Notes under the pieces: generated by a model
Databases searched by the model: none
The model's input: the letters and a program-made list of their open reading frames with translations, nothing else
What the model was told of the DNA's origin: nothing
Part shown: positions 11,242 to 28,674 of the stretch, piece by piece
Position numbering within the stretch: position 1 is the stretch's first letter
Layout of the letters: each line of letters starts with the position of its first letter
IMG/VR virus record: IMGVR_UViG_3300037067_027627
Source of the DNA: a virus
Lineage: Duplodnaviria; Heunggongvirae; Uroviricota; Caudoviricetes
Length of the DNA: 64,000 bases
Strand: one strand, 5' to 3'
Made by a program: the position numbers and the translations under genes

Positions 11242-12366
11242 TTATCGCCGCTCGATTTGTTGTTTTTCTGCATGCATCCGCGTGCTTGAAATTCTTTGCC
11301 CTGTCGCGTCAGTAACCAGTGGTATGAGACAGATGGCAACAGGAGGAAGTGAATACATTTTCCGAAGATCGTTAACGTACTCAGCATTCTCTTTTGTTTC
11401 TTCACTTGCTACGAGAATGTCGTAGAATGGGTTCATTCCGACATCTCCCCACGCATCCACCAGTGGTTTAAACATGTAATCCGCATGATACTTCTTTGAT
11501 TTTATATAGTCTTTTATCTGGTTTATACGAACTTTGTACGGCTGAACCGGATGAGTTTTCTTGCTTGCCATGTGATCGCTTGTAATCCCGATATGTACAG
11601 CTCCCCCGTTCCCAGCAAGAGAGAATGCCGCATCTAATAACGCTCTATGCCCTGCGTGTAAGAGATCGAATGTCCCTCCAACCACAATCTCGGGGCGATT
11701 CATACGAATCATCCCTAGAATATTCTCAACCATTTTATTTCCCAAGAGTTTCTGGATAACCGGGGTATAGAATATCGGATCGCGTCTCATGAGTTTGATA
11801 AGAATATCTTTGCGCGCGCGATAGTATACTGTGGCCGGAACAAAAGCGTATTCTTCCCGTATCCAGTTTTCGATTTCCTCATAATGATGTGACGCCGTGT
11901 AAGCCAAATCAATATCCATAACCAAGGCTTCGTCAGGGTTTCGCGGAGGTTCCACATGTTCTGTCGCCAGAATATACGACTTTATTCGTTCGATAACAAC
12001 GAGATCTGGGGTCTTACCCGATCGGTTGTATAGTTCTGACATTACAGATTCACATCCATCCGCACTTATCCTTACATTTTCATGATCTGTGGAATGGGTG
12101 TCATAAACAATATCGTGGAAGAATAACGCCAGAATTGCTTCGTCCGGGTAATTAAACTCGTGACGGAACCACGCAGCGTTTGATATGCATTCAGTGAGAT
12201 GGTTTATGCTGTGGTATTTACGTGATTTATGCGTATACGGTTTCACTACAGTAATGAAGAAGTAATCGAGACTGTCGTGGAGTCCCAGATTTTCGCATGC
12301 ATCTCGCCACATGTCATATAAATACTGCTGGGATTCCGTTGGTATAGCAATTCTTGAATTTGCCAT
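11242..12366 (-). CDS. HD-domain phosphohydrolase fused to NMN/NaMN adenylyltransferase (NadM/NadD-like cytidylyltransferase fold)
   Basis: The C-terminal half carries the nucleotidyltransferase (H/T)xGH motif, GGTFDLLHAGH. The N-terminal half has HD-like His/Asp residues (HSINHL...FFHDIVYD). Start trimmed to MANSRIAIP at 12366 to remove overlap with the divergent gene. Confidence 0.6.
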   Translation of the reverse strand: MANSRIAIPTESQQYLYDMWRDACENLGLHDSLDYFFITVVKPYTHKSRKYHSINHLTECISNAAWFRHEFNYPDEAILALFFHDIVYDTHSTDHENVRISADGCESVMSELYNRSGKTPDLVVIERIKSYILATEHVEPPRNPDEALVMDIDLAYTASHHYEEIENWIREEYAFVPATVYYRARKDILIKLMRRDPIFYTPVIQKLLGNKMVENILGMIRMNRPEIVVGGTFDLLHAGHRALLDAAFSLAGNGGAVHIGITSDHMASKKTHPVQPYKVRINQIKDYIKSKKYHADYMFKPLVDAWGDVGMNPFYDILVASEETKENAEYVNDLRKMYSLPPVAICLIPLVTDATGQRISSTRMHAEKQQIERR

Positions 12367-12419
12367 AATAACTCTTGATACAGGAAGAATATAAATATAG
12401 CTACTACCATTTTTAATAC

Positions 12420-13580
12420 ATGGATGACATCGCGTGGATGAATGAGCCTGAGGCTGCAAAAGCACTTGTATATAATATGCTCAATGTAACGCGTATTTTG
12501 TCTCCGACAGGAATGGAACGCGAGATGACCGCGTTCTGCAACGAAGAATTAATAAAATGCGGATTTGAAACGCACATCGATACACATGGAAATATAATGG
12601 CAATACGTGGGCGGGATTCCCAAGATAAATTCATTCTTCTTAATTCTCATATGGATACTGTCCCGATAAACAGGCCGCGATCTCGCCTTTCACTTAGAGA
12701 AGAATATGTGAAAAAACGGAACGATATTCTCACTCGCAGGTTTGGTGTAAAATGCAGATATGTATCAGAAGGGAAAGCACTGATAAGAGCGAGAGATCAC
12801 TATGATACATCAGGATCGTTGTCATTTGAAAGTAGGGAAATGCACGAGTTATATGACCAAGAGCACAAGCAATTCCAAGCCGAACTCGAAGATTTAGAAC
12901 GATTTGTGAAAGACAACGAGAAAAACACTGACGTGTGGGTAGAAGAAGTATCAAACCCTTGGGAACCGCAAAGAATAGTATATAATCCAAGTGCTACTGC
13001 CATCGAGATCACCGAAGGACGGGGAGAGATGTATATGGGCGGGGATGATAAAGCCGGGGTTGCGATGATTCTTACTATTGCTCAACTCACGGATTACCCG
13101 TTGAAAATATTATTTACGGTATCAGAGGAAGAATTCGATATACGCGTTCCCGACCCAGACGATTCTGACCGTACTATCCGTGTATCCGGGGTTCACACGA
13201 TTCCCCCCGACTTCTATGACGATGTTGCGTTTGATTTGACACTGGATAAAGGAGAGGGCAATCTGCTTGTTCCAAAAATAAGCGGGAAGTTGTTATGTGG
13301 TGAAGATCTCGTGACTTTCATATTGCATGTATCAGAAATTGCAGATTACCCGCTTAAAGTAGTGGAAGGATTACGATGTGATGCACTTTACATACGTGAC
13401 CATGTTCCAGCCGTGAATATGTCCACGGGATATCACAACCCGCACCGTCCTAACGATTATGTTAATATTATAGAATCGCATAATATGATGGCTCTTGTAC
13501 GCAAAATTATAACAGAATATAATGCAACCAAGCCTGTGTTTGATCGTATTAAGAAAAAGAAACCTAAAACATCCGATTAG
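12420..13580 (+). CDS. M20-family metallopeptidase (ArgE/DapE/peptidase T-like)
   Basis: LNSHMDTV (H-x-D), GGDDKAGVAMILTIAQ (metal-binding Asp) and FTVSEEEFD (EE) form the M20 dinuclear-zinc signature. Confidence 0.65.
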   Translation: MDDIAWMNEPEAAKALVYNMLNVTRILSPTGMEREMTAFCNEELIKCGFETHIDTHGNIMAIRGRDSQDKFILLNSHMDTVPINRPRSRLSLREEYVKKRNDILTRRFGVKCRYVSEGKALIRARDHYDTSGSLSFESREMHELYDQEHKQFQAELEDLERFVKDNEKNTDVWVEEVSNPWEPQRIVYNPSATAIEITEGRGEMYMGGDDKAGVAMILTIAQLTDYPLKILFTVSEEEFDIRVPDPDDSDRTIRVSGVHTIPPDFYDDVAFDLTLDKGEGNLLVPKISGKLLCGEDLVTFILHVSEIADYPLKVVEGLRCDALYIRDHVPAVNMSTGYHNPHRPNDYVNIIESHNMMALVRKIITEYNATKPVFDRIKKKKPKTSD

Positions 13581-13629
13581 TTAATATTATATATGTAAAC
13601 GCGCTATTATCACATGGTGAAAACACACT

Positions 13630-14001
13630 ATGGACATACTAGAATTCTTAGTTGAGAACGAAAGCGCGATCCTGCTCGTTATCTCCGTACTGCTTGCAAT
13701 TGTCGCAAGGTACTTCCAGAACCAGTCGAAGATCCTGTACGACGCTGGGCAAGCAATTGTTGATCTTGAGCAGTTATTCCTCGCAGATATCAAGGATGGA
13801 GTTATCTCGAAGGAAGAGATCGATCTTCTTGTACCGAAGGTAGAAGCAGCAAAGGCAGCAATCCTCGCAGTTGTGGAAGTGTTCACTCAGCCCGTTACAT
13901 TCTCCCAGAGACTCGACATTCTTCTCGGATCTACAGGAGCACGGAATAAGATTGCACAGATCCAGATTAAAACGCAGACAATGCAGATGAAGCGTAGATA
14001 A
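13630..14001 (+). CDS. Hypothetical protein
   Basis: 123-aa ORF; hydrophobic N-terminus. Confidence 0.4.
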   Translation: MDILEFLVENESAILLVISVLLAIVARYFQNQSKILYDAGQAIVDLEQLFLADIKDGVISKEEIDLLVPKVEAAKAAILAVVEVFTQPVTFSQRLDILLGSTGARNKIAQIQIKTQTMQMKRR

Positions 14002-14060
14002 ACGCTTAATTTTTTGGTACCGTGGAAACGCGGTACCACCGAAACAGGTGAAAAAGGAAG

Positions 14061-14342
14061 GTGATTACGATTCCTCTTAGATGTGGCAAGACACAAATTG
14101 GCAACAACATCCGCAAATTGCGAAGAGAAGGGTACCCGCAACGTCAAGCAGTGGCTATTGCAATGAGTCATTCACGGCGATGTAAAACGGGCAAGGTTTC
14201 ATGGAAGACCGGGCGTTCTAAAAAACGCATAGGGTGGGGGTTCAAGAAATGTGCATTATCTGTGATACGAACTTCTCCGATTAATACACCAAAACAGTTC
14301 ACAAGAACAATGTCCAGAGTGCGTAAAATCTGCCGCAAATAA
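14061..14342 (+). CDS. Small basic protein, paralog 1 of a tandem trio
   Basis: 93 aa, K/R-rich. Shares the C-terminal motif KKCALSVIRTSPINTPKQF with the next two ORFs. Confidence 0.5.
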   Translation: MITIPLRCGKTQIGNNIRKLRREGYPQRQAVAIAMSHSRRCKTGKVSWKTGRSKKRIGWGFKKCALSVIRTSPINTPKQFTRTMSRVRKICRK

Positions 14343-14412
14343 TGCAAAATCAAACTTTTTTTGAAACACCTTTAAATACCTTTCTGCGCAATACAGATAT
14401 CGGTGCAACTAC

Positions 14413-14781
14413 ATGAGTAAATGTGTTCGAATCAACGGGCAACTCTGTTGTTCGTGTATGCCGTGTAGTAAACCGAAACGACGGAGAAATATTATGGTTA
14501 AGCGCAGAACTCACAGACGTGTTGGAACGCGGAAGGGATACAACAAGAAATGTGTCATCTCGATCATCCGACGCGCAAAGATCGGAACTGCAAAGCAGTT
14601 CAGTATGGCAATCAAGAAAGCACGGAAGGCTTGCCGGGCTACTAAGGTCAAGGCATCTACCGGTGGACGCCGCAAGGTCGGAACCAGACGCCGGAAGCTG
14701 GGCACACGCAAGTGCAAGTACGGCCACCGCAAGGGTAGCAAGAGATGCCGTAAGACTCCACGCAAAGCATCACGCCGGTAA
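14413..14781 (+). CDS. Small extremely basic protein, paralog 2 (about 40% K+R)
   Basis: Carries the motif KKCVISIIRRAKIGTAKQFSMAIKKARKACRA. Codon usage is consistent with a real gene; it sits in a local high-GC block. Confidence 0.55.
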   Translation: MSKCVRINGQLCCSCMPCSKPKRRRNIMVKRRTHRRVGTRKGYNKKCVISIIRRAKIGTAKQFSMAIKKARKACRATKVKASTGGRRKVGTRRRKLGTRKCKYGHRKGSKRCRKTPRKASRR

Positions 14782-14801
14782 TTCAGTAGGAGTGGATTGA
14801 C

Positions 14802-15182
14802 ATGGTAAGAAAGAGTGGAAGACGAAGAACAACCCGCAGAACAGTCACGAAAGTGGTTGCCGGTAAGAGATGCGTATGCAAATCTGTCCGTGGAAAAGCT
14901 GCGAAGGGCGCATTCAAGAAGTGCCTGATCTCGGCAATCCGTGGAACCAAGGTTACCACACCGAAGTCAGCACGTCGCGCATTCAACGCCGCTGCAAAGC
15001 GGTGCAGTGCACGGGTTCTTGGAAAGCCGGTTGCAACCCGCCGACGCCGCAAGGGTGTTCGCAGGGCTGCACCACGCCGCAGACGATCGGCATCTCCGCG
15101 CATGAGCGCCGGATCGTGGAGTGGAAACATACCACGCCGCGCAGAACGGTTAAGCCACAGCAAATACTGGCTCAACCAGTAA
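14802..15182 (+). CDS. Small extremely basic protein, paralog 3
   Basis: Carries the motif KKCLISAIRGTKVTTPKSARRAFNAAAKRCSA, homologous to paralog 2. Confidence 0.55.
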   Translation: MVRKSGRRRTTRRTVTKVVAGKRCVCKSVRGKAAKGAFKKCLISAIRGTKVTTPKSARRAFNAAAKRCSARVLGKPVATRRRRKGVRRAAPRRRRSASPRMSAGSWSGNIPRRAERLSHSKYWLNQ

Positions 15183-15231
15183 CTTTTTTTAAACGTGAAC
15201 AGGGTTTGACCCCACGGTCACGCGATTGATA

Positions 15232-15837
15232 TCACACGAATTCTGTAGTGGTTTCTGATCCGTGCCCAGACCATGTTGTAAATGTTTTCTGGTAACACTC
15301 CAAGAAGTCTTGTATATCTTCGAGATTATCGAAGAGGGTCATCGAACTATACTCGCTGCATGTGTTCCACGGTTTGCGCAGACCAACCCCGATTTTATTC
15401 TTTGCGAGTGCCGCATTTATCGTGTCTGCGCGGTCGTCTACCACAACAGCAACGCGTGGATTGTCGAACATCGATGTTTTGTCGGAAGATACAACAACCT
15501 CGTCATATACAAGATCGTGTATTTTCAGCCATTCTACGAGTTCCGCACGGTATTCGTCCTTGCGATGAGATGCGATAATCACATGGAACTTCGATTTCAT
15601 GAATTTCAGGAACTGTTCGGCATACGGGTATGGATTATAACTGCACTGGTGAGAATGGACGCGATTAAAAACTTCAATCACCTGATCCTGACCAGAGTAT
15701 TTATATATCGCTTCCCATCCGGTACATTCCCGTCGTTTGGGAATGCGAACCCCCATTTCAGATCCCGTTGCAAAAACAGCATCGTGAAAAGCCCATAGTG
15801 TTTCATCCACATCAACGATTGCGATTGGCTTCGACAT
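15232..15837 (-). CDS. HAD-superfamily hydrolase, 5'(3')-deoxyribonucleotidase-like
   Basis: The N-terminus MSKPIAIVDVDETLW carries the HAD motif I, DxDx(T/V). Confidence 0.55.
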   Translation of the reverse strand: MSKPIAIVDVDETLWAFHDAVFATGSEMGVRIPKRRECTGWEAIYKYSGQDQVIEVFNRVHSHQCSYNPYPYAEQFLKFMKSKFHVIIASHRKDEYRAELVEWLKIHDLVYDEVVVSSDKTSMFDNPRVAVVVDDRADTINAALAKNKIGVGLRKPWNTCSEYSSMTLFDNLEDIQDFLECYQKTFTTWSGHGSETTTEFV

Positions 15838-15840
15838 TTT

Positions 15841-16251
15841 TCACCTGTTGTTCTTTATCTTTGATTCGAGTTCGCGACATTGTGATTTCAATCTGAGCAG
15901 TTCTGCCTGTATGTGGTTGGATTGTTCGTGAAGACCGTTGATCACAGGCTCGTATTTCTTCTCTGACATGTGAATCCCGCTATACGTTCCAATATCTGTC
16001 CCAGCTAAGAACAGCAGTGCAGGTTCATCAACAAACTCTGCATACACCCGATTGAGAAAATCTCCGGTGTTTGCATTGCCATCAACAGGCGCGACATCCG
16101 TAAAGCACTTTTGAATCCTGTTCCTGTACGTTTCATATTCGGTATCGGTCATACCGGCAATGGTTTGCGTGGTGCAATCCACAACCATGCCTACGTCACG
16201 AACCGTCTCAAACTTTGGGAATACTTTTCCCTTTACAAACTTTGTTCTCAT
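15841..16251 (-). CDS. Hypothetical protein
   Basis: 136-aa ORF in a tight co-directional array. Confidence 0.45.
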   Translation of the reverse strand: MRTKFVKGKVFPKFETVRDVGMVVDCTTQTIAGMTDTEYETYRNRIQKCFTDVAPVDGNANTGDFLNRVYAEFVDEPALLFLAGTDIGTYSGIHMSEKKYEPVINGLHEQSNHIQAELLRLKSQCRELESKIKNNR

Positions 16252-16560
16252 TTAATGTCCTCCTCCTTGTTCCATTGCCCACTCCATCTCCAAACGTTTA
16301 TCGGCAACGTTGTTCTTTTCGTCTGATTCCCGTAGTTTCTCGCGGATCTCTGGAACAGTCAACATCTTGTAATCTTTCTGTTCAAGAGATCTTTCATATT
16401 CATTCATAAGAATGAATATAATACGAGAATCCACATTCATCCGTGTGGTGTGCGCCAGAAGTTGTTCATGGTAGAACCGGGCTTTTCGCCGTGCTCGCAC
16501 AACATCCATCACCTCGCAGAATAACTGGGTTACACGCGATTCGTATTCTTTGTTATCCAT
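16252..16560 (-). CDS. Hypothetical protein
   Basis: 102-aa ORF abutting the previous gene. Confidence 0.45.
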   Translation of the reverse strand: MDNKEYESRVTQLFCEVMDVVRARRKARFYHEQLLAHTTRMNVDSRIIFILMNEYERSLEQKDYKMLTVPEIREKLRESDEKNNVADKRLEMEWAMEQGGGH

Positions 16561-16563
16561 ATG

Positions 16564-16974
16564 TTATTCCTTCTGTTTCCATTCTTCGCAATGTATCACA
16601 TGACTGCCTCTGCCCGGGTAAGGGCACTCTGGTCGTCTATACTTCTCACAACTTAGGCAGTATACGAATCCACTGTAATGAATCATCGACGCATCCGTCA
16701 CAATCGGGTGCACTTCTATGAATGGGCGATCTCCGCAGCTACTACCATCCTCATCAATGTTCCCGGGTTTCATCTTGTTCAATTGTTCAGCCATTAATAC
16801 CCAAGATGATGAGTCATATCCTTCTCGAATGTCGTGATCAATCATATCCTTGCATTCTTCGATACATCCTTTGCGAAGAATCTCGAATAGTTCAATAGAC
16901 GTTTCCACCGACATCGTTACAAACTTGACACTATGTGTGTCGTAACCTTTAATCCCCACCAGATATGCTTTCAT
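16564..16974 (-). CDS. Hypothetical protein
   Basis: 136-aa ORF. Confidence 0.45.
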   Translation of the reverse strand: MKAYLVGIKGYDTHSVKFVTMSVETSIELFEILRKGCIEECKDMIDHDIREGYDSSSWVLMAEQLNKMKPGNIDEDGSSCGDRPFIEVHPIVTDASMIHYSGFVYCLSCEKYRRPECPYPGRGSHVIHCEEWKQKE

Positions 16975-16978
16975 GTGT

Positions 16979-17257
16979 TCACCCGCATGGTAATTTTACG
17001 CAGTTATCACCATCATACTCATGTGCAACGAACTTGAACGTGTCCAGACTTATCAGAGACGAGCAGTGAATCCCGCCGATATTGCAAGGGCAACCTTTCA
17101 CATTACACCCGGCGACGTATAACTTCTTCTCAGTTACGTAATACAAAACAGGTATAAGAGAAAGCCCATCTGTGGATTTCCCTTCTTTAGCAATCTCCAT
17201 ACGGCAGTTGCCGCAAAAGAGGTTACCTACCTCTTTTCCACACCGATCGCATTTCAT
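16979..17257 (-). CDS. Zinc-ribbon protein
   Basis: MKCDRCGKEVGNLFCGNCRME plus a later CxxC. Confidence 0.45.
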   Translation of the reverse strand: MKCDRCGKEVGNLFCGNCRMEIAKEGKSTDGLSLIPVLYYVTEKKLYVAGCNVKGCPCNIGGIHCSSLISLDTFKFVAHEYDGDNCVKLPCG

Positions 17258-17577
17258 TTCTTGATCTCTGTTGTCTTTGATCGAGCTTGTTCGATTGATT
17301 TGCGAATCACAGGAGCTGCTTTCTCATACATATCAATCCGTGCGATAATAAACGCAGCGTAATTAATAATGTCGATAAGCTCGTCCCGCTTCTTCTTGTT
17401 GTCGGAAGAGTAAAAAGCCCGCGTGGCTTTATACATCAGGACGCCTTCCAACGCTTCAACCGGGGCAACATCTTTCGGTTCCTGCGTATACAGTGTACCA
17501 CGTTCGATCTTTGTGCTTACGACTTCGCGCATAACCGCAAGATAACTCTCGTCTTTCTTACTGCCATCTTCTGTCAT
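17254..17577 (-). CDS. Hypothetical protein
   Basis: 107 aa; 4-nt overlaps at both ends. Confidence 0.45.
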   Translation of the reverse strand: MTEDGSKKDESYLAVMREVVSTKIERGTLYTQEPKDVAPVEALEGVLMYKATRAFYSSDNKKKRDELIDIINYAAFIIARIDMYEKAAPVIRKSIEQARSKTTEIKK

Positions 17578-18044
17578 GTTTTTCCTAACCTTTTATGTAA
17601 TACTGATTTCACAATTGATATAAAACCATCATACTGTTTCTTTTCCGGGATCGATACAAGATCTCTCCTGTAGTTTTTCCAGTGTTCTTCATATAGTTCT
17701 CGTGTCCGTGTAATTTGAAACTCTTGTATGTGATACGCAAACCCGGCGCGCCCGTTCCCGAGATCCCCGGCTTCACGATATACTACAGAATAGTCTTCAA
17801 GCGCACAGAGTGAGTGCCAAACTTCCGATTTCGTCATTACCCACGCAAGAGAGGATACCATTGTGGAAACCGATATGGGTTTATTTAATATGAAGTTGTA
17901 ATGGTAAATCTCACAAGCAAGCTTCAAATCTTCGGACAGTCGGCAATACATGTTGTCTTCTGCCATCCATCCGTCGATGCATCTTCGCAAATGCCACAAA
18001 CCGTCGTTCCATATGCGTTCACAATTCTCGTTTTCGAATTCCAT
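17574..18044 (-). CDS. Hypothetical protein
   Basis: 156-aa ORF. Confidence 0.45.
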   Translation of the reverse strand: MEFENENCERIWNDGLWHLRRCIDGWMAEDNMYCRLSEDLKLACEIYHYNFILNKPISVSTMVSSLAWVMTKSEVWHSLCALEDYSVVYREAGDLGNGRAGFAYHIQEFQITRTRELYEEHWKNYRRDLVSIPEKKQYDGFISIVKSVLHKRLGKT

Positions 18045-18180
18045 TATACACTTCCGATCATTGACGTGTATGACAAAGCTGCATAGTATATAGATATGAA
18101 TACCAGTATTGTCATAAGAATGATAATCATAAACATATATTCTATGGGAGTTACAAAAATTGTCATCATAATCACCGTTA

Positions 18181-19151: not shown

Positions 19152-19546
19152 TCATGCTGATCCTGACCTGATGTGGTGCTCTTCCGTAGTCGTTCTCTTT
19201 CAATCTTCATAATCAATTCATTATACGCGGAATCAGAGAACATACTGGTGTGCCTCTTGATCCACCTTTCCATAATATCCAGCGTTGCGATCGTGGCGGT
19301 GCGGGCTGATTCCTTTGCTGCAATACCCATCATGTATTTACATTCGTCCTTCGTAATTGGTTTCGGTGCCGGGGTGTGCAGATGGAAACTTAAATTAGGA
19401 CACCCCAGTTCTATTTTCATACATTCAGTACATGATTTATATTTATGGCAAGTCCCTATTCCTTTCATTGTGGTTTCACCGGCTTCCTGCAACACTGGCA
19501 TTTGCTCGAACCGAATCAAGAGTTCGAACCACCCCGAGATACTCAC
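19148..19546 (-). CDS. Hypothetical Cys-rich protein
   Basis: 132-aa ORF. Confidence 0.4.
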   Translation of the reverse strand: MSISGWFELLIRFEQMPVLQEAGETTMKGIGTCHKYKSCTECMKIELGCPNLSFHLHTPAPKPITKDECKYMMGIAAKESARTATIATLDIMERWIKRHTSMFSDSAYNELIMKIERERLRKSTTSGQDQHE

Positions 19547-20171
19547 GGAATATCAACGCGTTTGTTGATTTTGGAAGCTTCGTTCTCGTGTAAGCGGCAT
19601 CGATCATGTCTAATAAAGCATCGATCTCATCTCGGTTCGTTGTTGGTGGTGCGGGTTCGAATGCAACACCTTTCCCGTCCAGAAGATTAATACCAAACTG
19701 GAGAGTGCGGAACGCAGATCGCAATGCTTTCTCTTCTGATACAGATCCTTTCCGTTTTGTGATATCAGCTAGTTGACTTATCGCCATCCCACGGACTGAC
19801 CAGTACGTAGATGCAGCCAGATTCTTCGAAACGATATCACGAAGTTTATCATACTCTACGGATCTTGTGATTACATGCGGGCTCATTACTGCCCAAATCG
19901 CATTACAGTTCCCTTTTATAAGTAAATCTACAAGGTGCCCGATCTCCATGAACTGGAACTCCCATTCCCCAAGATCGTTTTCGTGTTTGCGGAATGGCAT
20001 AGTTTCCGGAATTCGCCACCCTTCCAATATTCTTAACGTAGGATATTGATACACTATCATGATGTCGTGGTCACTATCAGGGGTGTCCATCCCCCACATA
20101 TGCGATCCAATTACAGTTCTGAAAAGTTCTTTCCCGGGTAAATTTTGACCGGGAAAAGTTTTAGTTTCCAT
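19476..20171 (-). CDS. Pol-beta-superfamily nucleotidyltransferase (minimal nucleotidyltransferase fold)
   Basis: GSHMWGMDTPDSDHDIMIVY fits the G[SG]-x9-13-D-x-[DE] signature. Confidence 0.55.
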   Translation of the reverse strand: METKTFPGQNLPGKELFRTVIGSHMWGMDTPDSDHDIMIVYQYPTLRILEGWRIPETMPFRKHENDLGEWEFQFMEIGHLVDLLIKGNCNAIWAVMSPHVITRSVEYDKLRDIVSKNLAASTYWSVRGMAISQLADITKRKGSVSEEKALRSAFRTLQFGINLLDGKGVAFEPAPPTTNRDEIDALLDMIDAAYTRTKLPKSTNALIFREYLGVVRTLDSVRANASVAGSR

Positions 20172-21253
20172 TATCGCGCCTCGTTCCTAATCATTTTCTC
20201 TTGTGACCAGTGTTTACTCGTTGTCACGTGACCCGTACGAACATACTTCGCAACGTTCTGGTCGAATTCATTGAATGGGTACGAATACATACTTCTGACC
20301 ACAATTCCTTCGTGCCCGTGTCTAACAACAAGATCACCCCATGATTTCACTTCGCGTTCTAGGTCTCTTGCAGATGATATCCGCATCGGAACCAGTGGGT
20401 ATCCTTGGTGATGTTCATTATACATCTCGTATAACGTCGGTGTCGTAGAGACGTTCAGTATCTGCGCCCAGTCCTTAACCGATGCCCAGCTCGCCCACTC
20501 TGCATGATTGTGATCATAAACTGCGAAAAGTTGCAGGTATCCCCTGTTGAGGGCAAGATCTCCTATATAATGAATGGAGTGTTTCGCATATAACCACTCC
20601 CCAAATATCTGTACACCGTCCGGAATCAGATCCCGCATCACCGCATGCATAGATTTCACCATCGCAAACGATGGGTGTGGGGCATCGTGCGCATTCCGCG
20701 CAGCAACACCACGATTATCGAACGTGACATTACTCCCATCCATCTTCAAAGTGAATACGATATCCTTGTTGCACAGGGATTCCCACGGCATTATCCCATT
20801 TTCACGTTTCTCTTCAACGTGACCCCCGGGACTATTGCGGAAGAATGGAGTATGCGGGTACTTTATGCGTAGTCCTTTTGCGGAGGACAGATTTGGGATC
20901 GTGTGGGGAACGCCCCACTTGTTAAACTCCGTAAATGGTGACTTCACAACGATCAGTTTCTTCGGGTAGATCGCAGGAGAAATCCCGCACCATTTCCTGA
21001 GTTGATTCGGGGTGATTGCGCCTTTCTCTGCATCCATATGATGATTCTCACACAATGGCGCACCGTTCCCGTACACATACCCGCCATTTTCGGTATGTGC
21101 GTCCCACAATGCCCGTTCGAGTATGTGATGAGCGTCAACCGCCGCGTTCTTACACCACGGTACACAACACTTTCCATTATGTATCGCGAATGTTTCTTCC
21201 CGGAACTTCGCCCTTACCGGGTTCTGTTCCTTTCTGTTTGACATTGTTATCAC
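20171..21253 (-). CDS. HNH endonuclease domain fused to an ATP-dependent RNA ligase (Rnl-like nucleotidyltransferase)
   Basis: N-terminal HNH: CCVPWC...DAHHI...LCENHH. Ligase motif I KxDG in VFTLKMDGSNVTF. Motif IV-like EGIVVRS and motif V-like LYAKHSIHY. The first ~70 nt overlap the upstream ORF, so the true start may be downstream. Confidence 0.6.
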   Translation of the reverse strand: MITMSNRKEQNPVRAKFREETFAIHNGKCCVPWCKNAAVDAHHILERALWDAHTENGGYVYGNGAPLCENHHMDAEKGAITPNQLRKWCGISPAIYPKKLIVVKSPFTEFNKWGVPHTIPNLSSAKGLRIKYPHTPFFRNSPGGHVEEKRENGIMPWESLCNKDIVFTLKMDGSNVTFDNRGVAARNAHDAPHPSFAMVKSMHAVMRDLIPDGVQIFGEWLYAKHSIHYIGDLALNRGYLQLFAVYDHNHAEWASWASVKDWAQILNVSTTPTLYEMYNEHHQGYPLVPMRISSARDLEREVKSWGDLVVRHGHEGIVVRSMYSYPFNEFDQNVAKYVRTGHVTTSKHWSQEKMIRNEAR

Positions 21254-21820: not shown

Positions 21821-21823
21821 AAC

Positions 21824-22294: not shown

Positions 22295-22330
22295 TCTTTT
22301 TTCACCTTCAACATCGCCCCAAAGGGCAGA

Positions 22331-22370
22331 CCGTGAACGGGGCTCGCACCCGTTTGCCTTCTGGTCACGG
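22331..22370 (-). repeat. Intergenic tRNA-like minihelix repeat, copy 1
   Basis: Plus strand CCGTGAACGGGGCTCGCACCCGTTTGCCTTCTGGTCACGG. It lies 9 nt after the stop codon of the 22380..23117 gene. Confidence 0.85.
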
Positions 22371-22379
22371 TTGTTCTGA

Positions 22380-23117
22380 TTACGGTGCTTGTTTTTTCTT
22401 TTGCGGAGACACATGCACGTTGTGGTCTACAGTCAGGTTCTGACCGGTAGGATCTGCCGCAGCTGCATACACTGCTGCGTCGGCAACGGTTCCTGTGGAA
22501 CGGTATGCTGTTGCAGCCATACCATATGCCCTTCCAACAGACTGTCCTCCTGCACGATGATGCCCGAAACAGATTGTATTCGCACTTCCAAGCCCAATAC
22601 TGATCCCATCGGCAAATGCTGTCGGAGAAGCAGACAGATATAGGAATGCCCACTTGAAATCTTTGGTGCACTTCTCAATCGTGTTCAGGATCTGTGTGCG
22701 GGTGTATTCTTTACTGTCGTTCTCGTTACCATCGGTAAGAATAACAACCATAACCCGCGCAGGATCTGCCCCGGGTTTCTCGTAACGTTCACGCACGGTT
22801 GCAATTGCACGACCTATCGCGTCATACAGAGCTGTCCTTCCTCTCGGAACGTATGTGGATCGATCCAATGGTTTCACATCTGCGATCGGAGTCCCGTCAT
22901 GCGCTACAATATACTCGTGGTCAAACAGAACCATCGTGAGGAATGCTGCGCCTTGCAACCCCTGTTGTTCACTCAGGAACGTATTGAATCCTCCGATTGC
23001 ATCGTCCCTGATGTTACTCATTGACCCAGACCTGTCAAGAATACATACGAATTCCGTAGGTACATCTGTTGATGTCTGGATCTGTTTTCCCTTTTTAGAC
23101 TGCTGTTTTTTTGACAT
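22380..23117 (-). CDS. von Willebrand factor A (vWA) domain protein
   Basis: MIDAS motif VCILDRSGSMSN (DxSxS), plus downstream T and D residues. Confidence 0.6.
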   Translation of the reverse strand: MSKKQQSKKGKQIQTSTDVPTEFVCILDRSGSMSNIRDDAIGGFNTFLSEQQGLQGAAFLTMVLFDHEYIVAHDGTPIADVKPLDRSTYVPRGRTALYDAIGRAIATVRERYEKPGADPARVMVVILTDGNENDSKEYTRTQILNTIEKCTKDFKWAFLYLSASPTAFADGISIGLGSANTICFGHHRAGGQSVGRAYGMAATAYRSTGTVADAAVYAAAADPTGQNLTVDHNVHVSPQKKKQAP

Positions 23118-23138
23118 ACAAACCCCTGTAAAAATAGA

Positions 23139-23543
23139 TTAGATTTTGAAGATAACGTTCTTCACCGGGGTATCATGCGATGTCGCATCCTCGCGCCGCT
23201 TGCGCAGGGTATCTGCAACCTGCGATTTAAGTCGCTTCCCAGCTTCCTCAACCTGCTTCGCACGGTACGCTTCCTGATTGATCCTGTGCAATCTGTTCCC
23301 GGCGATTTTAATCGTGTTCATGATCTTGAAGATCACTGCCGATTTATACTCCCCGTTAACGCACAGGGTTGTCCCATCAAATAATCTGATGGTTTTGTGA
23401 GAGTCCGTTAGCCAGAACGAAGGATTCGACTCCACATACTGTGGATTCATCTTATCCTTTGTAAGTACTCCGCGAATACTCAACACACGATACATCCGGA
23501 CACCGTTCCTGAGGAACTCTTGTGTCTTGATCCGAACTGTCAT
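23139..23543 (-). CDS. Hypothetical protein
   Basis: 134-aa ORF with SD GGAGGAAAC upstream. Confidence 0.45.
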   Translation of the reverse strand: MTVRIKTQEFLRNGVRMYRVLSIRGVLTKDKMNPQYVESNPSFWLTDSHKTIRLFDGTTLCVNGEYKSAVIFKIMNTIKIAGNRLHRINQEAYRAKQVEEAGKRLKSQVADTLRKRREDATSHDTPVKNVIFKI

Positions 23544-23788
23544 GTTTTTGTTTCCTCCATTTTACTTTACTTAATCCCCTCTTCGGGGAAACGTGAGTAG
23601 CGGGGGATCGAACCCCGCGCAAGTGCTGCCACACTTTTCCTGATGGTGATTCATCCAGACGTACAGAAATCCGGAAGCGGATGCCCTGTTCGGGAAACAT
23701 CCCATTATCCTTCCCACTCACACAATCACGACCCGGACGGCAAGCTCCGGTTCACGCCTCGGGGTTGTACGATCCTCAATCGTGAAAT

Positions 23789-23828
23789 GTCGTGAACGGG
23801 GCTCGCACCCGTTTGCCGCTCGACACGA
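23789..23828 (-). repeat. Intergenic tRNA-like minihelix repeat, copy 2; outer stem variant TCGTG/CACGA
   Basis: GTCGTGAACGGGGCTCGCACCCGTTTGCCGCTCGACACGAC. Compensatory change in the outer stem. Lies directly after the stop of 23838..24044. Confidence 0.8.
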
Positions 23829-23837
23829 CGGATAATC

Positions 23838-24044
23838 TCATCTAAGTATTATCACCGCTAACACAACAACTACTACAAATAATACGAATAGTGCTGGCAA
23901 CCAAACCAACCACCACGGCATGATAATGTTAAATCCATAAAACAATACAAGAAGCGCAATCTGCGCAACAAACAGCAATCCTACTGTAAAGTTAGACATG
24001 TTAGTTTCACTTCTGTTCGCAACATCCGCAAGCACCGTGTGCAT
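23838..24044 (-). CDS. Small membrane protein
   Basis: 68 aa, almost entirely hydrophobic. Confidence 0.4.
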   Translation of the reverse strand: MHTVLADVANRSETNMSNFTVGLLFVAQIALLVLFYGFNIIMPWWLVWLPALFVLFVVVVVLAVIILR

Positions 24045-24237
24045 GCGTGTTCATATACGCAATGTGATCTGCAAGATCATCGGCAATTGTTTGTGTGTAC
24101 CACGGTTTGATCAATGCAAGAATAGATTCGATCTGCTCTTCGGTGAGATCGTTGATCTCGATGTTGTACCAAACCGTATCTCTTCCGATACCATCTGGGT
24201 TGTGACATTCCGTTCTGTTATAATTCATTTGTACCAC
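24007..24237 (-). CDS. Hypothetical protein
   Basis: 76-aa ORF. Confidence 0.35.
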   Translation of the reverse strand: MVQMNYNRTECHNPDGIGRDTVWYNIEINDLTEEQIESILALIKPWYTQTIADDLADHIAYMNTHAHGACGCCEQK

Positions 24238-24417
24238 TTTAAAGTTATATGTGCGTGATATTAATCTTTTCCCATATCTTCCAACAAATCATCCAAGGGT
24301 TTTCGGTCGCCATATCTTTTCCCAGCGTTGCAGACAAAGCGATCGGTGAATAGATGCGATTCATACCATAGCAATGTCTGTATAATAGCAACAACTGGGC
24401 ATGTCATACGCCAACAC

Positions 24418-24789
24418 CTACTGATCTTCTTTTCTACGTAACTGGTCGCACGTTCTGAATCGTTTTACTGACAAAACCTGCCCCCGCCCGTCTCGTTTGG
24501 CTCCATTTGCACCTTTGGTATCTGGTGAAATAAAATCCGGTCGCGCCATTATCTGCGTCACCTGACTCGGGACTATGTACCACGTGTCTTTTGATGGCGA
24601 TGGAATGATATCATCTGCGGGCTCATAATATACCCGCTGGATAATTGGATTATCATCTATGGTTTTAATAACATCGTCCATCATTTCCAGCCGTAAAACT
24701 CGCCCATCCGGAGGATATTCATAAACACTTCCATCGGATCGTTCAACGATAATCGGATGCGAATTCAAGTTTATAATACGCGTGCTCAT
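24418..24789 (-). CDS. Hypothetical protein
   Basis: 123-aa ORF. Confidence 0.45.
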   Translation of the reverse strand: MSTRIINLNSHPIIVERSDGSVYEYPPDGRVLRLEMMDDVIKTIDDNPIIQRVYYEPADDIIPSPSKDTWYIVPSQVTQIMARPDFISPDTKGANGAKRDGRGQVLSVKRFRTCDQLRRKEDQ

Positions 24790-24815
24790 CGAATAACACC
24801 ATCAAACAGCGAGGA

Positions 24816-25139
24816 TTAATCCTCGCTGCCATCATCTTCGTCTTCGTCGTCTTCGTCGTCATCCTCATCGTCGTCTTCGTCCTCGCATTCGTCCTCGTCT
24901 TCGTCGTCACAAGGGCAATCGTCTTCGGGCTGTGTGAAATCAAGAATCTTGTCTTTCACGACCTCAACGTTGAAAATGTCTGATAATGCAACAGAGTCAT
25001 CCTCAATCAAATCGGTCATTGCTTCGTCGGCGATATCAATTGCTTCGCGCGGGTTCTTTGCTTCGACAATGGTAAATGCCGAATATTTTACTACGAACCT
25101 CTTTAGTACTGGTGCTTTACGTTTTCCCATAAGTATCAC
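24816..25139 (-). CDS. Hypothetical protein with a poly-acidic (D/E) C-terminal tail
   Basis: C-terminus PCDDEDEDECEDEDDDEDDDEDDEDEDDGSED. Confidence 0.45.
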   Translation of the reverse strand: MILMGKRKAPVLKRFVVKYSAFTIVEAKNPREAIDIADEAMTDLIEDDSVALSDIFNVEVVKDKILDFTQPEDDCPCDDEDEDECEDEDDDEDDDEDDEDEDDGSED

Positions 25140-25504
25140 TTCGTATTGGATTGTGTTTTTTCCACTGTGTCAAATATTCGCATCACATCATTTATATCTG
25201 TTTCGGTGAGCTTACAATCGCGAATCAGGAGATCTCCAAGTGAAGATAAGATCCGCTGACCATTCGTAAGAACAGCGCTCGTTGTTTTCGGGTCTACCTG
25301 CCCCTCGGATATCCCACGTAATGCCCCGGTAAGAGCAAAGATGTCAACAAGAAGTGCCTTTGCAGTGTTGTGATCGGCGCAGAAAATCGTAGGAACAGGG
25401 TTAAGAGTCTGCGCAACAGGATCCGGGTCTGATTGCACGTCTGTTTTTGATTTCTCAAGTACAATCTCGAAGTCGTTTTGTTTGTCCTTGTTTGTATCTG
25501 CCAT
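25136..25504 (-). CDS. Hypothetical protein
   Basis: 122-aa ORF. Confidence 0.45.
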   Translation of the reverse strand: MADTNKDKQNDFEIVLEKSKTDVQSDPDPVAQTLNPVPTIFCADHNTAKALLVDIFALTGALRGISEGQVDPKTTSAVLTNGQRILSSLGDLLIRDCKLTETDINDVMRIFDTVEKTQSNTK

Positions 25505-25505
25505 G

Positions 25506-25703
25506 TTATATTACCTCTAGTTTCTTCTGTGTCTTTGTTATTATACGTTTGTTTTCCCCGATACGCGTAAACGATCCTTCGACCAGTTCACTGATGCGAT
25601 GGCAATCCGGGCATTCTACCGTTTCGTGAATATCACTCATTGATTTCTTGGTAAATACCCCATGTTCACGGCATTTGTATATGCATGTAAATCGCAGTTT
25701 CAA
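25506..25703 (-). CDS. Zinc-ribbon protein
   Basis: CIYKCREHG...CPDCHR. Confidence 0.4.
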   Translation of the reverse strand: MKLRFTCIYKCREHGVFTKKSMSDIHETVECPDCHRISELVEGSFTRIGENKRIITKTQKKLEVI

Positions 25704-25728
25704 ATGGCAACACCACCAATAAAATTAG

Positions 25729-26169
25729 TTATGAGTATTCGTCCCCATACACTTCCTTAATATAAGGATCCGGATCCTCGATGCACATTACTTTTTTCTT
25801 CTCGGGTATCGTCATGTTCTGGTCTTCCATAATACTCTTACGTAAAGACTCCCGTGAAGATTTTAATTGCGTAAGTATAGACATCCGCGCAACTATTTTC
25901 TTTGCACCATTGTTAATTTCACCCTGCGATATCTCCCCGCTAAGAGAGAATACCGAAGATAATGAATCGTAATTCGCAATTGCTGCTGTGATTGCTGCTA
26001 GTTCACTACTTGTAAACCGATCATTACCAGTAACAATTGACTCCAACCCTCGCGCAGCCAGTTCAATTTCCGACAACATATCAACTAAATCACTTCGTAA
26101 CATCCCGAAAGTTACAACTAGATCACCATCGATATCGTCATCATCGTTTGAAAACCGTCCGGATACCAT
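25729..26169 (-). CDS. Hypothetical protein
   Basis: 146-aa ORF. Confidence 0.45.
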   Translation of the reverse strand: MVSGRFSNDDDDIDGDLVVTFGMLRSDLVDMLSEIELAARGLESIVTGNDRFTSSELAAITAAIANYDSLSSVFSLSGEISQGEINNGAKKIVARMSILTQLKSSRESLRKSIMEDQNMTIPEKKKVMCIEDPDPYIKEVYGDEYS

Positions 26170-26238
26170 GATCTGCCAAATACCTATTCCATTATCAATT
26201 CATATATAGGTTTCGGAACGACGGTGTGAGGGATAAAT

Positions 26239-26412
26239 TTACCTGAATCTGTGCTTATCGACAGGACGCTTTTTTTCTTCAAACGCCATAAATCGTTCAT
26301 GCTTCGCACATTTTTCCGAGAACGGGTTAAATGCAGATGGGCAGGTTAGTTCCCCGTTCTCATTTGTTGTATCCGCACATCCTTCGCAAAACTTATACTT
26401 TGAGCATACCAT
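26239..26412 (-). CDS. Small Cys-rich protein (57 aa), below the ORF-track length cut-off
   Basis: Hand translation gives MVCSKYKFCEGCADTTNENGELTCPSAFNPFSEKCAKHERF.... SD GAGGTAAAA lies upstream. Confidence 0.35.
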   Translation of the reverse strand: MVCSKYKFCEGCADTTNENGELTCPSAFNPFSEKCAKHERFMAFEEKKRPVDKHRFR

Positions 26413-26435
26413 GATTTTACCTCACATCCGGTTTC

Positions 26436-26750
26436 TTACTCTGCATCTTCGTCTTCGTCTGGGAGACCAAGGAAGATACGTGTGCCTTCAATCACGTGTT
26501 CGTAATCGATTTTGTTCTCGTTAAGTTTTCGCATCACGTCGTTCACAGTGAACGTTGCATTCGATTTCACCTGCAAATCCCTCACAGACTTGACTGCGAC
26601 CCCGAATTTAGAAACAGGTATCAAAAAGAAATCCTCAGTAACGTCTGCATTCAATCTGTTCTCGTTCGTAATACGCACTACAAGAAGTGCCTTGTCAGTA
26701 TCTTTCTCTGTCATGTTATACCTCTTTTTTCTTGAATCCCATGCACCCAA
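26436..26750 (-). CDS. Hypothetical protein
   Basis: 104-aa ORF. Confidence 0.45.
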   Translation of the reverse strand: MGAWDSRKKRYNMTEKDTDKALLVVRITNENRLNADVTEDFFLIPVSKFGVAVKSVRDLQVKSNATFTVNDVMRKLNENKIDYEHVIEGTRIFLGLPDEDEDAE

Positions 26751-26895
26751 TCTCTGGTTTAAGTCCCGGGATTATATCATCATACATGGGTATGTCCTTT
26801 GTTGTATTTATAACTCTTCCGAGAACGCGGCACCAGTTCGGAGAACGTTCCCCGTATCCCCCAGTGCTGCAATCTCTGCAAGGTAATTCTGGCAT
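26716..26895 (-). CDS. Small Cys-rich protein
   Basis: ORF-track entry 26716..26964 trimmed to MPELPCRDCSTGG so that it abuts the upstream gene. Confidence 0.35.
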   Translation of the reverse strand: MPELPCRDCSTGGYGERSPNWCRVLGRVINTTKDIPMYDDIIPGLKPEIGCMGFKKKEV

Positions 26896-26896
26896 G

Positions 26897-27247
26897 TTAT
26901 GATTCCTTCTTTGGATCACGTTCTTCGATAATCGCCGATAGTAAGATGAGGTAATTTCGGGCATCCGAAACTCGTTGTGAGAACCCTTCTGTAGCTCCAG
27001 TCCCGCCCCACCCCAGCCGTGTTCCGGGTCTCATCGCAGCCTTGGCAATAGCTTGGATATGCTTCATCATAAAAACAAGGCATACTTCTTCCGGGGTGAT
27101 CCCAAGTTGATTCGCGGTTGTCTTGAAGTTAACCAATACATCAGTATCGGCAGCATATTCAGATCGCTTTGTTATGAGGAGACTACGTTCAGCCCCCTCG
27201 AACATATTGTAGAGATTTTCAAAAGATTGTTTATCCATGATCTTCAC
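26897..27247 (-). CDS. Hypothetical protein
   Basis: 116-aa ORF. Confidence 0.45.
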   Translation of the reverse strand: MKIMDKQSFENLYNMFEGAERSLLITKRSEYAADTDVLVNFKTTANQLGITPEEVCLVFMMKHIQAIAKAAMRPGTRLGWGGTGATEGFSQRVSDARNYLILLSAIIEERDPKKES

Positions 27248-28674
27248 ACCTGCGCGTTTCTCCGTACCTGATCAAACGTCCAGTCACGGATAATACTCCC
27301 GTTCAGGAACACCGTGTTCAGGACATTATATCCCGGGACACATACTTCGTTTACAGTTGCATAGTGACCATCCTCACACGTGAGGATAAGCCGCCCGCGT
27401 TTGGAGGCTTTTCGCGCGTCTGATACCGGGCGTTTGTAAACGTCGTGCCATACCCCGTCAATATCGATCGCACTGCACTTGAATGCAAAACTCTGGGTAT
27501 CACGATTGACTTTCTGGAGAAGAGCACCGCCCATCCCGAACACGATATTGGACGGGGCGAACCGATACTTTCCGACAACCTCGTATAAAATCTGACTGAT
27601 CATATCGAGGCTGATGTAATCGCCATAGATAACACTGACGTGTGGATCGAGAACACGATACCCGCGTTCATTAACAGTCCCACCGTAGTGCTTCCACAAA
27701 AGTTCGAGAACCTGCAACGACATCCAAACCGGGTCGCCACTGTCTGGGCGGAGGACAACTTTGCCTTTACGCGCGATGATTTGGTCTTTCAGTAACTCAC
27801 CGAAATATTTGTCTGCTGCACGAATTGCATCGTATGAATCAATAACAACAGATGCAATCGCATCGTCCGGAGCACGACCGATGATCTCACGGTACGCTTC
27901 CTCCTCGTTCCCTTCCCCGTAACTGGTCACAGTTGAATGTTCTGCCGCATAAACGGAAAGGAGAATCGGATCGCGACTCATCTTGGCACTGTAATACTTG
28001 TTTGCATACCGTTTCGCAAGTAGATTGTCGCTCCCGGCGAAGTTCACTAAGTGTGCCATCCCGCCAATACCTGCGGTTTCTACAGATGATGCGCCACGGA
28101 ACCCAAAATCGTTCAGGTGCACAATCGATGCATGTTCACCGGCTTTTACTGCCCACCCTTCGATCACTTTACGAACTTCGCGACTCATTGTGGCTACGGT
28201 AATAGGATACCATACCAATTCAAGAAGTCCCTCGTAGAAGTTTGGAAGCCAGAAAGAATCGGGATCCGTGTTCTCAACGGTCATTAACACATTTTTGACC
28301 GGAACGACCATACCCTCTGGTACAGTCTTGATTTGCAGCGGAAGTTTCCCATCAAGATCGTTCGCAATGTGGCGAAAACCCTTCTCGTTGAAAAACTTAA
28401 ACCCGAATATCTCTTCGCTATCTGCAATAGCCTCGTCAATGGTTTCGTTTGTGATAACCTTCCCGGCGAGATATTTCTTCAAGTAATATTGAGTGCCGAA
28501 GCATACCGTTTCCGGGAACATACCCCCGCGACTCTCTAAATACGAGAACACAGTTCTGGTATTCTTTGGATACTGCATCCAGTGAGTTAATTTATATGCG
28601 TCAGTCGCTTCTTCCATGATGCAATCTGCCAAGATTGCCGCAGTGATAGGATTTTCTTTATTTACTTTGTCCAC
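27244..28674 (-). CDS. Nicotinamide phosphoribosyltransferase (NAMPT / NadV-like)
   Basis: 476 aa. The motifs GIGGMAHLVNFAGSDN and NIVFGMGGALLQ match NAMPT-family signatures; the overall length also fits. Confidence 0.7.
   Translation of the reverse strand: MDKVNKENPITAAILADCIMEEATDAYKLTHWMQYPKNTRTVFSYLESRGGMFPETVCFGTQYYLKKYLAGKVITNETIDEAIADSEEIFGFKFFNEKGFRHIANDLDGKLPLQIKTVPEGMVVPVKNVLMTVENTDPDSFWLPNFYEGLLELVWYPITVATMSREVRKVIEGWAVKAGEHASIVHLNDFGFRGASSVETAGIGGMAHLVNFAGSDNLLAKRYANKYYSAKMSRDPILLSVYAAEHSTVTSYGEGNEEEAYREIIGRAPDDAIASVVIDSYDAIRAADKYFGELLKDQIIARKGKVVLRPDSGDPVWMSLQVLELLWKHYGGTVNERGYRVLDPHVSVIYGDYISLDMISQILYEVVGKYRFAPSNIVFGMGGALLQKVNRDTQSFAFKCSAIDIDGVWHDVYKRPVSDARKASKRGRLILTCEDGHYATVNEVCVPGYNVLNTVFLNGSIIRDWTFDQVRRNAQV

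Follow-up and report, generated by a model that had tools for sequence, protein, structure and literature searches.

Among cultured phages, 94% of those carrying a KVP40-type nicotinamide phosphoribosyltransferase (Nampt) also encode a nicotinamide mononucleotide (NMN) adenylyltransferase (Nmnat; bioRxiv 10.1101/2024.02.11.579819). The Nmnat of this pathway, NARP2, is represented by NatV of KVP40 and its counterparts in Acidovorax phage ACP17 (ASD50455) and Xanthomonas phage RTH11, in which a NadM-type NMN adenylyltransferase (NMNAT) is fused with a Nudix domain. The Nampt family further includes Namat, the ADPR-PP-using enzyme of NARP1. In coenzyme A (CoA) metabolism, pantetheine-phosphate adenylyltransferase (PPAT) occurs as bacterial CoaD and as an archaeal/eukaryotic type, which are only distantly related to each other and catalyze the same reaction. 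Archaeal PPATs are either stand-alone proteins or fused with an NTPase (PF01931) or a DUF359 dephospho-CoA kinase (DPCK). We analyzed a 64-kb stretch of DNA (64,000 nucleotides, here called the window) from the Caudoviricetes record IMGVR_UViG_3300037067_027627, in which two open reading frames (ORFs) are relevant to these systems. A first-pass annotation, made from the sequence alone, had described ORF A (11242..12366) as a new fusion of an HD domain with an NMNAT and ORF B (27244..28674) as a Nampt, the two forming an NAD+ salvage pair. Both ORFs are present at these positions, on the minus strand, and their features are no chance resemblance. ORF B is a full-length Nampt, but the transferase of ORF A belongs to the PPAT family, and by its sequence relationships ORF A appears to be a rare, phage-specific, HD-first permutation of a widespread partnership between HD and PPAT domains.

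The HD-PPAT fusion protein of ORF A

ORF A codes for a protein of 374 amino acids (aa), in which gene calls, profile matches and an AlphaFold2 model (pLDDT 94.1, pTM 0.89) delineate an N-terminal phosphodiesterase (PDE)-like HD domain and a C-terminal PPAT domain. It starts with ATG at 12366, with an AAGAG Shine-Dalgarno-like motif 5 nt upstream. At its longest, the frame would begin with a GTG at 12465; the 374-aa form is the one used by all homologs and by three independent gene calls. An identical protein in the sequence databases (P0001) bears the JGI name 'pantetheine-phosphate adenylyltransferase'.

The C-terminal domain (aa 223-374, 11242..11700, minus strand) is an archaeal/eukaryotic-type PPAT-like Rossmann domain. 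Residues 225-369 scored 145.7 bits against NCBIfam NF001985 (archaeal-type pantetheine-phosphate adenylyltransferase, curated cut-off 104 bits), covering model positions 5-146 of 157, and also matched the PPAT/NTPase and Thermococcales CoaD models. The best NadD models (cut-offs 315 and 150) gave only 12 and 11.9 bits, respectively, and the NadM and NadM-Nudix models gave no match at E≤1. By sequence, the sole significant relative of solved structure was the Archaeoglobus fulgidus protein 3DO8 (phmmer against PDB, E 8e-16). The same protein ranked first in a Foldseek search of PDB (TM 0.81-0.85, target-normalised), followed by pantothenate synthetases (PanC), bacterial PPATs and cytidylyltransferases (CCT); HldC was also among the top 50 matches, and no NMNAT was. 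Profile comparison with NatV of ACP17 (hhalign) detected superfamily-level similarity only (probability 56%). These results place the ORF A transferase in the archaeal/eukaryotic-type PPAT family and do not bear out its assignment as an NMNAT. Modeling of 11242..12366 had been suggested as a check on that assignment, with a PPAT-like C-terminal domain named beforehand as the outcome that would speak against it. The C-terminal domain did model as a PPAT, and the N-terminal domain modeled as an HD fold with its ligands present.

Two motifs mark the putative active site of the transferase: the nucleotidyltransferase (HxGH) motif GGTFDLLHAGH (aa 230-240, 11647..11679, minus strand), in which G231, T232, F233, D234, H237, G239 and H240 are invariant, and the likewise invariant ISST motif (aa 359-362, 11281..11292, minus strand; ISSTR is 359-363). 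Both HxGH and ISST are retained without change in homologs down to 28% identity, suggesting that the C-terminal domain is probably active. The first-pass annotation had found GGTFDLLHAGH correctly and read it as an NMNAT signature. However, GGTFDLLHAGH and ISSTR are common to the whole HIGH-nucleotidyltransferase superfamily, including PPATs, and thus do not tell NMNAT from PPAT; the exact form GGTFDxLHxGH fits archaeal-type PPATs. A DPCK, which is fused to some archaeal PPATs, was found neither in ORF A itself nor elsewhere in the window.

The N-terminal domain (aa 1-222, 11701..12366, minus strand) is all-helical and adopts an HD-superfamily fold. Its 220 residues matched no Pfam or NCBIfam model at E≤1, including Pfam HD (PF01966) and PDEase_I (PF00233), and matched PHROG 19425 (3e-15) and 16069, both of which are described as 'phosphohydrolase'. 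When modeled alone (residues 1-222), the domain reached a pLDDT of 94.3, and its best structural matches were the catalytic domains of class I cyclic-nucleotide phosphodiesterases, followed by the HD hydrolases 2pq7 (13.6), YedJ (11.3) and YpgQ (10.5). The first His pair of the HD/PDE site (YH52xxxH56, 12199..12213), the HD dyad (H84-D85, 12112..12117) and the distal Asp ligand or ligands (D151-I-D153, 11908..11916), all on the minus strand, complete the H...HD...D metal-ligand pattern; Y51-H52, H56, H84-D85, D151 and D153 were invariant among 12-15 homologs (alignments A2, A3 and A5). The His/Asp residues that had been noted in this domain fit the metal ligands of an HD-like domain, intact and invariant, and the modeled structure identifies the fold as that of a metal-dependent HD hydrolase, more exactly a phosphodiesterase-like one.

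An exhaustive HMMER search of 1.84 billion representative sequences detected 8,499 relatives at E≤1e-3; a homolog search with the N-terminal domain alone added nothing new. An architecture census covered 180 retrieved proteins. Most consisted of the HD domain alone (103/180), and 25 consisted of a PPAT alone. The two families were joined as PPAT-HD, with a PPAT of the archaeal type, in 25 proteins, as HD-PPAT, the order seen in ORF A, in 15, and as PPAT-DPCK-HD in eight, and in two further proteins the HD domain followed a bacterial CoaD. The remaining architectures were single cases of PPAT-PepD (M20; P0030) and Nudix-PPAT (P0084). Proteins of the PPAT-DPCK-HD type carry a Pfam CoaE domain (118-164 bits) and include eukaryotic examples from the alga Spirogloea muscicola and the diplonemid Namystynia, and one PPAT-HD protein was found in the ciliate Blepharisma. 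The JGI name for proteins with such fusions reads 'predicted metal-dependent HD superfamily phosphohydrolase/phosphopantetheine ...'. In the two CoaD-HD proteins (P0099 and P0136), the CoaD part scored 144 and 160 bits against the equivalog TIGR01510 (cut-off 103.3), and the HD domain scored 82-87 bits against the N-terminal domain of ORF A.

The census shows that the HD and PPAT families have been combined again and again in evolution. Each PPAT type, and a full CoA synthase as well, has independently been fused with a domain of this one HD family; by the Rosetta-stone principle, these fusions argue that the function of the HD family is tied to CoA or 4'-phosphopantetheine metabolism. They also bear on the neighboring domain: because the HD partner is fused elsewhere with CoaD and with CoA synthase, the transferase of ORF A should be a PPAT. 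The novelty that had been claimed for ORF A, an HD/NMNAT fusion completing the route from nicotinamide (Nam) through NMN to NAD+ together with Nampt, is thus not supported; its transferase is of the PPAT family and its HD domain is of a kind fused with PPATs and CoA synthases.

The HD-then-PPAT order occurred in about 12 clusters. We looked at the genomic surroundings of five HD-first members, and all five lay on phage-like contigs. HD-PPAT was absent from INPHARED, and a scan of IMG/VR yielded generic cytidylyltransferase fragments only; PPAT-type genes in general were essentially absent from cultured phages and IMG/VR. Some cultured phages, for example Rhodococcus phages and Acinetobacter phage MD-2021a, encode homologs of the N-terminal domain alone. 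In bacteria such stand-alone relatives are common: of the first 600 pattern matches in GTDB species genomes, 594 proved to be relatives. This family of about 205 aa (80 bacterial loci, L105-L184) was observed in Pseudomonadota (Pseudomonas, Comamonas, Variovorax, Pseudoxanthomonas and Delftia), as well as in cyanobacteria, Acidobacteriota, Gemmatimonadota and Verrucomicrobiota, and has no Pfam or NCBIfam model; it may correspond to COG4339. At the 80 loci, no CoaD, DPCK, PPAT, Nudix or M20 gene was found within ±6 kb of the HD gene, and GC3-aware gene calling revealed no conserved neighbor beyond within-genus synteny, so gene context gave no further help on the function of the HD domain. The literature that we searched contained nothing relevant on COG4339, HD+PPAT fusions, HD+DPCK fusions or phage PPATs.

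ORF B and its relation to ORF A

ORF B (27244..28674, minus strand) encodes a nicotinamide phosphoribosyltransferase of 476 aa that belongs to the PRPP (phosphoribosyl pyrophosphate)-type Nampt clade. It is a separate gene, in no operon with ORF A, and starts with GTG, preceded by AAGAGGTG. The annotation as a full-length Nampt holds: the protein contains Pfam NAMPT_N and NAPRTase domains, matches PHROG 448, and scored 538.8 bits against NCBIfam PRK09198 (cut-off 405). It scored 387-401 bits against human and Xanthomonas (Xcc) Nampt and 241 bits against the Namat of SpbetaL1, whose structures are 9W5X and 9W5W (PMC12774641). We detected no Pribosyltran/Prs (Adps-like) match among the ORFs scanned, and the immediate neighbors of ORF B are ORFs of 116 and 83 aa. 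The possibility that ORF B is a Namat of the NARP1 kind was rejected on the score (241 versus approximately 390 bits) and on the lack of an Adps among these ORFs; the higher Nampt scores and the lack of a Prs-like Adps thus identify ORF B as a PRPP-type Nampt of the NARP2 kind.

Nampt homologs are frequent in phages (2,022 phage records), and the closest ones in cultured phages were those of Xanthomonas phage RTH11 (44% identity) and Acidovorax phage ACP17 (40%). In both, a NatV-type NMNAT-Nudix gene lies immediately upstream, and NatV is likewise adjacent to Nampt in an IMG/VR locus (L019). We searched for a comparable gene in the window, a 9.4-kb left flank (L101) and a 1.4-kb right flank, i.e., approximately 75 kb of a genome of at least 124.8 kb. 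Neither of the two NatV proteins gave a tblastn match in the window at E≤1. Pfam scans, which took in 29 larger and 50 smaller ORFs of the window and the left flank of about 9.4 kb, showed no other CTP_transf_like, NUDIX or Pribosyltran domain. In sum, no partner Nmnat (NatV, NadM, NadR or NadD) was found in the window or in either flank.

ORFs A and B are separated by 14.9 kb and about 26 ORFs, and they belong to different transcription blocks. ORF A is the first gene of a short minus-strand unit, which continues into the tRNA array at 10251..11097, and a plus-strand block (12420..14800) lies between ORF A and the long minus-strand block that includes ORF B. We also examined the fusion in four other phage lineages (P0003, P0007, P0009 and P0011), all on phage-like contigs; in P0007 the gene adjoins terminase, and in P0009 it is found on contigs of 122-127 kb. 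No Nampt was detected near the fusion in any of the four (tblastn, available contig, at most ±10 kb), and over this range the result was the same for all five fusion-bearing phage lineages considered. With this separation, and with NatV adjacent to the Nampts of RTH11 and ACP17, ORF A and ORF B do not look like the two-gene NAD+ salvage pair that they had been taken for.

In the P0009 phage (L001-L006), HD-PPAT is the lone plus-strand gene among minus-strand genes; its neighbors are a 77-aa ORF with a weak RyR domain, an NrdD fragment and a GNAT acetyltransferase. Three otherwise near-identical P0009 contigs carry copies of IS605 OrfB/TnpB (Cas12f-like) at different places.

Proposed role in CoA metabolism and alternative explanations

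We consider it probable that the window contains two unrelated auxiliary cofactor genes, a canonical phage Nampt and a separate HD-PPAT fusion of the CoA pathway. ORF B would convert Nam and PRPP to NMN, as the first enzyme of the known NARP2-type route of NAD+ reconstitution, and its NMN adenylyltransferase partner would come from the rest of the phage genome or from the host. A counter-defense role through NAD salvage, which had been suggested for the pair, is plausible for Nampt alone. The C-terminal domain of ORF A would catalyze the PPAT reaction (4'-phosphopantetheine + ATP → dephospho-CoA + pyrophosphate (PPi)), as inferred from its family. The HD domain is predicted to hydrolyze a CoA-related phosphoester, and the PPAT domain would then return the pantetheine moiety towards CoA. 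A phosphodiester substrate would suit the PDE-like fold of the HD domain. One candidate reaction, proposed by analogy only, is an AcpH-like release of 4'-phosphopantetheine from a phosphodiester-linked carrier; other candidates are hydrolysis of CoA, dephospho-CoA, 3',5'-ADP or PPi. In this way an infecting phage may keep up the CoA pool of its host, or divert it, and may benefit from doing so.

Several observations weigh against this explanation. The HD domain shows no sequence or profile relation to Escherichia coli AcpH (hhalign probability 0.1), and we rejected the domain as an AcpH relative on this ground. Stand-alone HD genes have no conserved neighborhood of CoA genes, and the link to CoA is based on fusions only. 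No CoA-depleting phage defense that would account for a selective advantage of ORF A was found in the literature searched. Within the HIGH-nucleotidyltransferase superfamily, family membership does not fix substrate specificity with certainty. Finally, Nampt is present and a canonical Nmnat was not found in the approximately 75 kb scanned, a gap that ORF A could in principle fill.

A broader and more tentative idea, which we regard as possible if doubtful, is that the HD family is a missing enzyme of CoA or 4'-phosphopantetheine turnover that is paired with PPAT in bacteria, protists and phages. If this were true, HD-PPAT would be a one-protein 'CoA reconstitution' module, the CoA counterpart of the NAD+ reconstitution pathways, and would keep acyl-carrier and CoA chemistry running during infection or strip host carrier proteins.

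The best surviving alternative, still an unlikely one, is that ORF A acts in counter-defense or signaling outside CoA supply. In that case the substrate of the HD domain would be a nucleotide second messenger (a cyclic mono- or oligonucleotide), which it would break down, and the transferase would either adenylylate a different phosphorylated ligand or supply dephospho-CoA to initiate RNAs with a non-canonical cap. Such a function would be consistent with cyclic-nucleotide phosphodiesterases as the best structural matches of the N-terminal domain; however, with HDIVYD the domain departs from the PDE signature HDxxHxGxxN, and it lacks a match to Pfam PDEase_I. The occurrence of stand-alone homologs in cultured phages (Rhodococcus phages and Acinetobacter phage MD-2021a), the position of ORF A in an accessory region with many genes for RNA repair and tRNAs, and the P0009 copy, which was inserted singly next to RyR-domain and GNAT genes, also fit a signaling enzyme. 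On the other hand, no defense-related family was detected, and the recurrent fusions with both PPAT types and with DPCK favor a CoA-centered role.

Still less probable is that ORF A is an NMN or nicotinate mononucleotide (NaMN) adenylyltransferase derived from a PPAT-like scaffold, which would complete the path from Nam through NMN to NAD+ with an HD domain in place of the Nudix domain of NatV. One point in its favor is the genome itself, which has a Nampt and, in the window and flanks, no detected NatV, NadM, NadR, NadD, Nudix or Prs, set beside the 94% of phages with KVP40-type Nampt that encode Nmnat; yet about 50 kb of the genome of at least 124.8 kb lies beyond the DNA scanned and could hold a normal Nmnat. 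Adenylyl transfer is chemistry common to all HIGH nucleotidyltransferases, hhalign gave a superfamily-level match to ACP17 NatV (probability 56%), and specificity can shift within this superfamily; nevertheless, the ORF A domain scored above the curated threshold for PPAT and below that of every NMNAT model, and its nearest structures are PPAT-like, not NMNAT. The Nudix-PPAT-like fusion P0084 echoes the architecture of NatV, but the HD partner family of ORF A is fused with bona fide bacterial CoaD and with PPAT-DPCK CoA synthases. Similarly, the P0009 fusion adjoins a weak RyR-domain ORF, and RyR-domain proteins degrade signals derived from ADP-ribose (ADPR; PMC13232231), whereas ORF A is neither adjacent to Nampt nor in a co-oriented operon with it and no Nampt lies near the fusion in the four other lineages within the distances searched. 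The idea that ORF A is a decaying or non-catalytic remnant without function, with Nampt working alone with host enzymes, is hardly credible, given catalytic motifs of both domains that are invariant down to 28-40% identity, confident and compact models of both domains, and retention of the gene across 12 or more clusters (50% identity).

The NAD+ part of this locus is ordinary, as Nampt is frequent in phages and NARP2 has already been described; a plausible-looking new architecture for NAD salvage is probably a CoA-pathway enzyme. The fusion of one HD family with both non-orthologous PPAT types and with eukaryotic CoA synthase hints at an unknown recycling step for CoA or phosphopantetheine. 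Since PPAT-type genes are near-absent from cultured phages and IMG/VR, phage control of the CoA pool would be a little-explored area of auxiliary metabolism.

Genomic context and comparison with known systems

The window has a GC content of 44.9% and 14 tRNA genes, and it looks like an accessory region of a large phage; it also codes for RNA ligase, RlaP, Ro60/TROVE, LAGLIDADG endonuclease, radical SAM and MT-A70 proteins. No cultured phage matched its 18-kb segment 11000-29000 (megablast against INPHARED). Upstream of ORF A, and divergent from it across a 53-bp gap, is an ORF for an M20/M42-like peptidase (12420..13580, plus strand), which has weak matches to M20, PepT and aa-His-dipeptidase models and a match to PHROG 4191 'peptidase' (6e-20). 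The head-to-head HD-PPAT/peptidase pair is kept in a related phage (52% identity), at loci L012 and L013 only, and a paralogous M20-like segment is present at the start of a 768-aa ORF (50726-53032, minus strand). In the metagenomic protein P0030, an archaeal-type PPAT is fused with a PepD-type beta-Ala-His dipeptidase (TIGR01893, 366 bits). This fusion hints at a link between PPAT and peptidase; direct similarity between the peptidase ORF of the window and that of P0030 was weak (E 0.002). The peptidase may be a functional partner of ORF A.

Directly downstream of ORF A, in the same orientation, is the array of eight tRNA genes (10251..11097, minus strand). Together with the array at 470-2638, it accounts for the 14 genes called by ARAGORN, of which four are tRNA-Leu and two are tRNA-Ser. 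A tRNA-like element at 2568-2638 was called by Rfam and not by ARAGORN, and the tRNA-Cys(GCA) at 10892-10974 is of unusual length (83 nt). Only tRNAs reached an Rfam threshold; neither Y-RNA nor any other Rfam family was detected. An RNA-repair and translation-maintenance set comprising RNA ligase, RlaP nucleotidyltransferase and a Ro60/TROVE-vWA protein occupies 19476-21253 and 34092-35621 (both minus strand). Beyond the left end of the window, the flanking contig (L101, 11461-13055) encodes a PolyA_pol/CCA-adding-like protein and a PTH2 peptidyl-tRNA hydrolase, and this flank of about 9.4 kb additionally encodes a glycosyltransferase and a methyltransferase.

Other observations concern genes further away. 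A LAGLIDADG homing endonuclease with an N-terminal helix-turn-helix (5465-6235, plus strand) is followed directly by a gene for a calcineurin-like metallophosphoesterase (~6232-7038, plus strand), known from the L101 gene calls only. At 43810-45356, the genes for an MT-A70 methyltransferase (plus strand) and a radical SAM/SPASM protein (minus strand) converge with about 3 bp between them. A 1,461-aa ORF without Pfam match (53022-57407, minus strand) and, at 57604-60584, an ORF of 491 aa with a weak papain-like match followed by one of 485 aa with weak beta-propeller-like matches may have structural or host-interaction roles.

Compared with known systems, ORF B matches the NARP2 Nampt (NadV of KVP40) over its full length and is 40-47% identical to phage Nampts that have a NatV neighbor; unlike in NARP2 and NARP1, it has no adjacent Nmnat and no Adps was found. 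ORF A resembles NatV in that both join a HIGH nucleotidyltransferase to a phosphohydrolase in a Nampt-bearing phage, but its transferase is a PPAT rather than NadM, its hydrolase is HD rather than Nudix, and its gene does not adjoin that of Nampt. Class I PDEs and HD hydrolases (PDE5, PDE2A, 2pq7 and YedJ) invite comparison with the N-terminal domain of ORF A, but this domain is much smaller than the PDE catalytic domains (222 versus approximately 330 aa), has Tyr in place of the second His of the PDE/HD HDxxH motif, and has no Pfam match. With AcpH, an acyl carrier protein phosphodiesterase of the HD family that frees 4'-phosphopantetheine from holo-ACP (PMC8557913), there is an earlier example of an HD-superfamily enzyme that makes the substrate of PPAT; for ORF A it serves as an analogy only. 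The C-terminal domain has the same motifs, Rossmann fold and size (about 150 aa) as archaeal/eukaryotic-type PPATs (NF001985/PRK00777, 3DO8 and the PPAT domain of eukaryotic CoA synthase); unlike archaeal PPATs, ORF A is phage-encoded and carries an N-terminal HD domain of 220 aa. The closest relatives in architecture come from bacteria and protists; these are the PPAT-HD, CoaD-HD and PPAT-DPCK-HD proteins (such as Blepharisma A0AAU9J8J2 and Spirogloea SM000080S22950), which have the two domain families of ORF A in one polypeptide. From these proteins ORF A differs in lacking a DPCK domain and in its reversed domain order, with the HD domain coming first throughout the phage clade.

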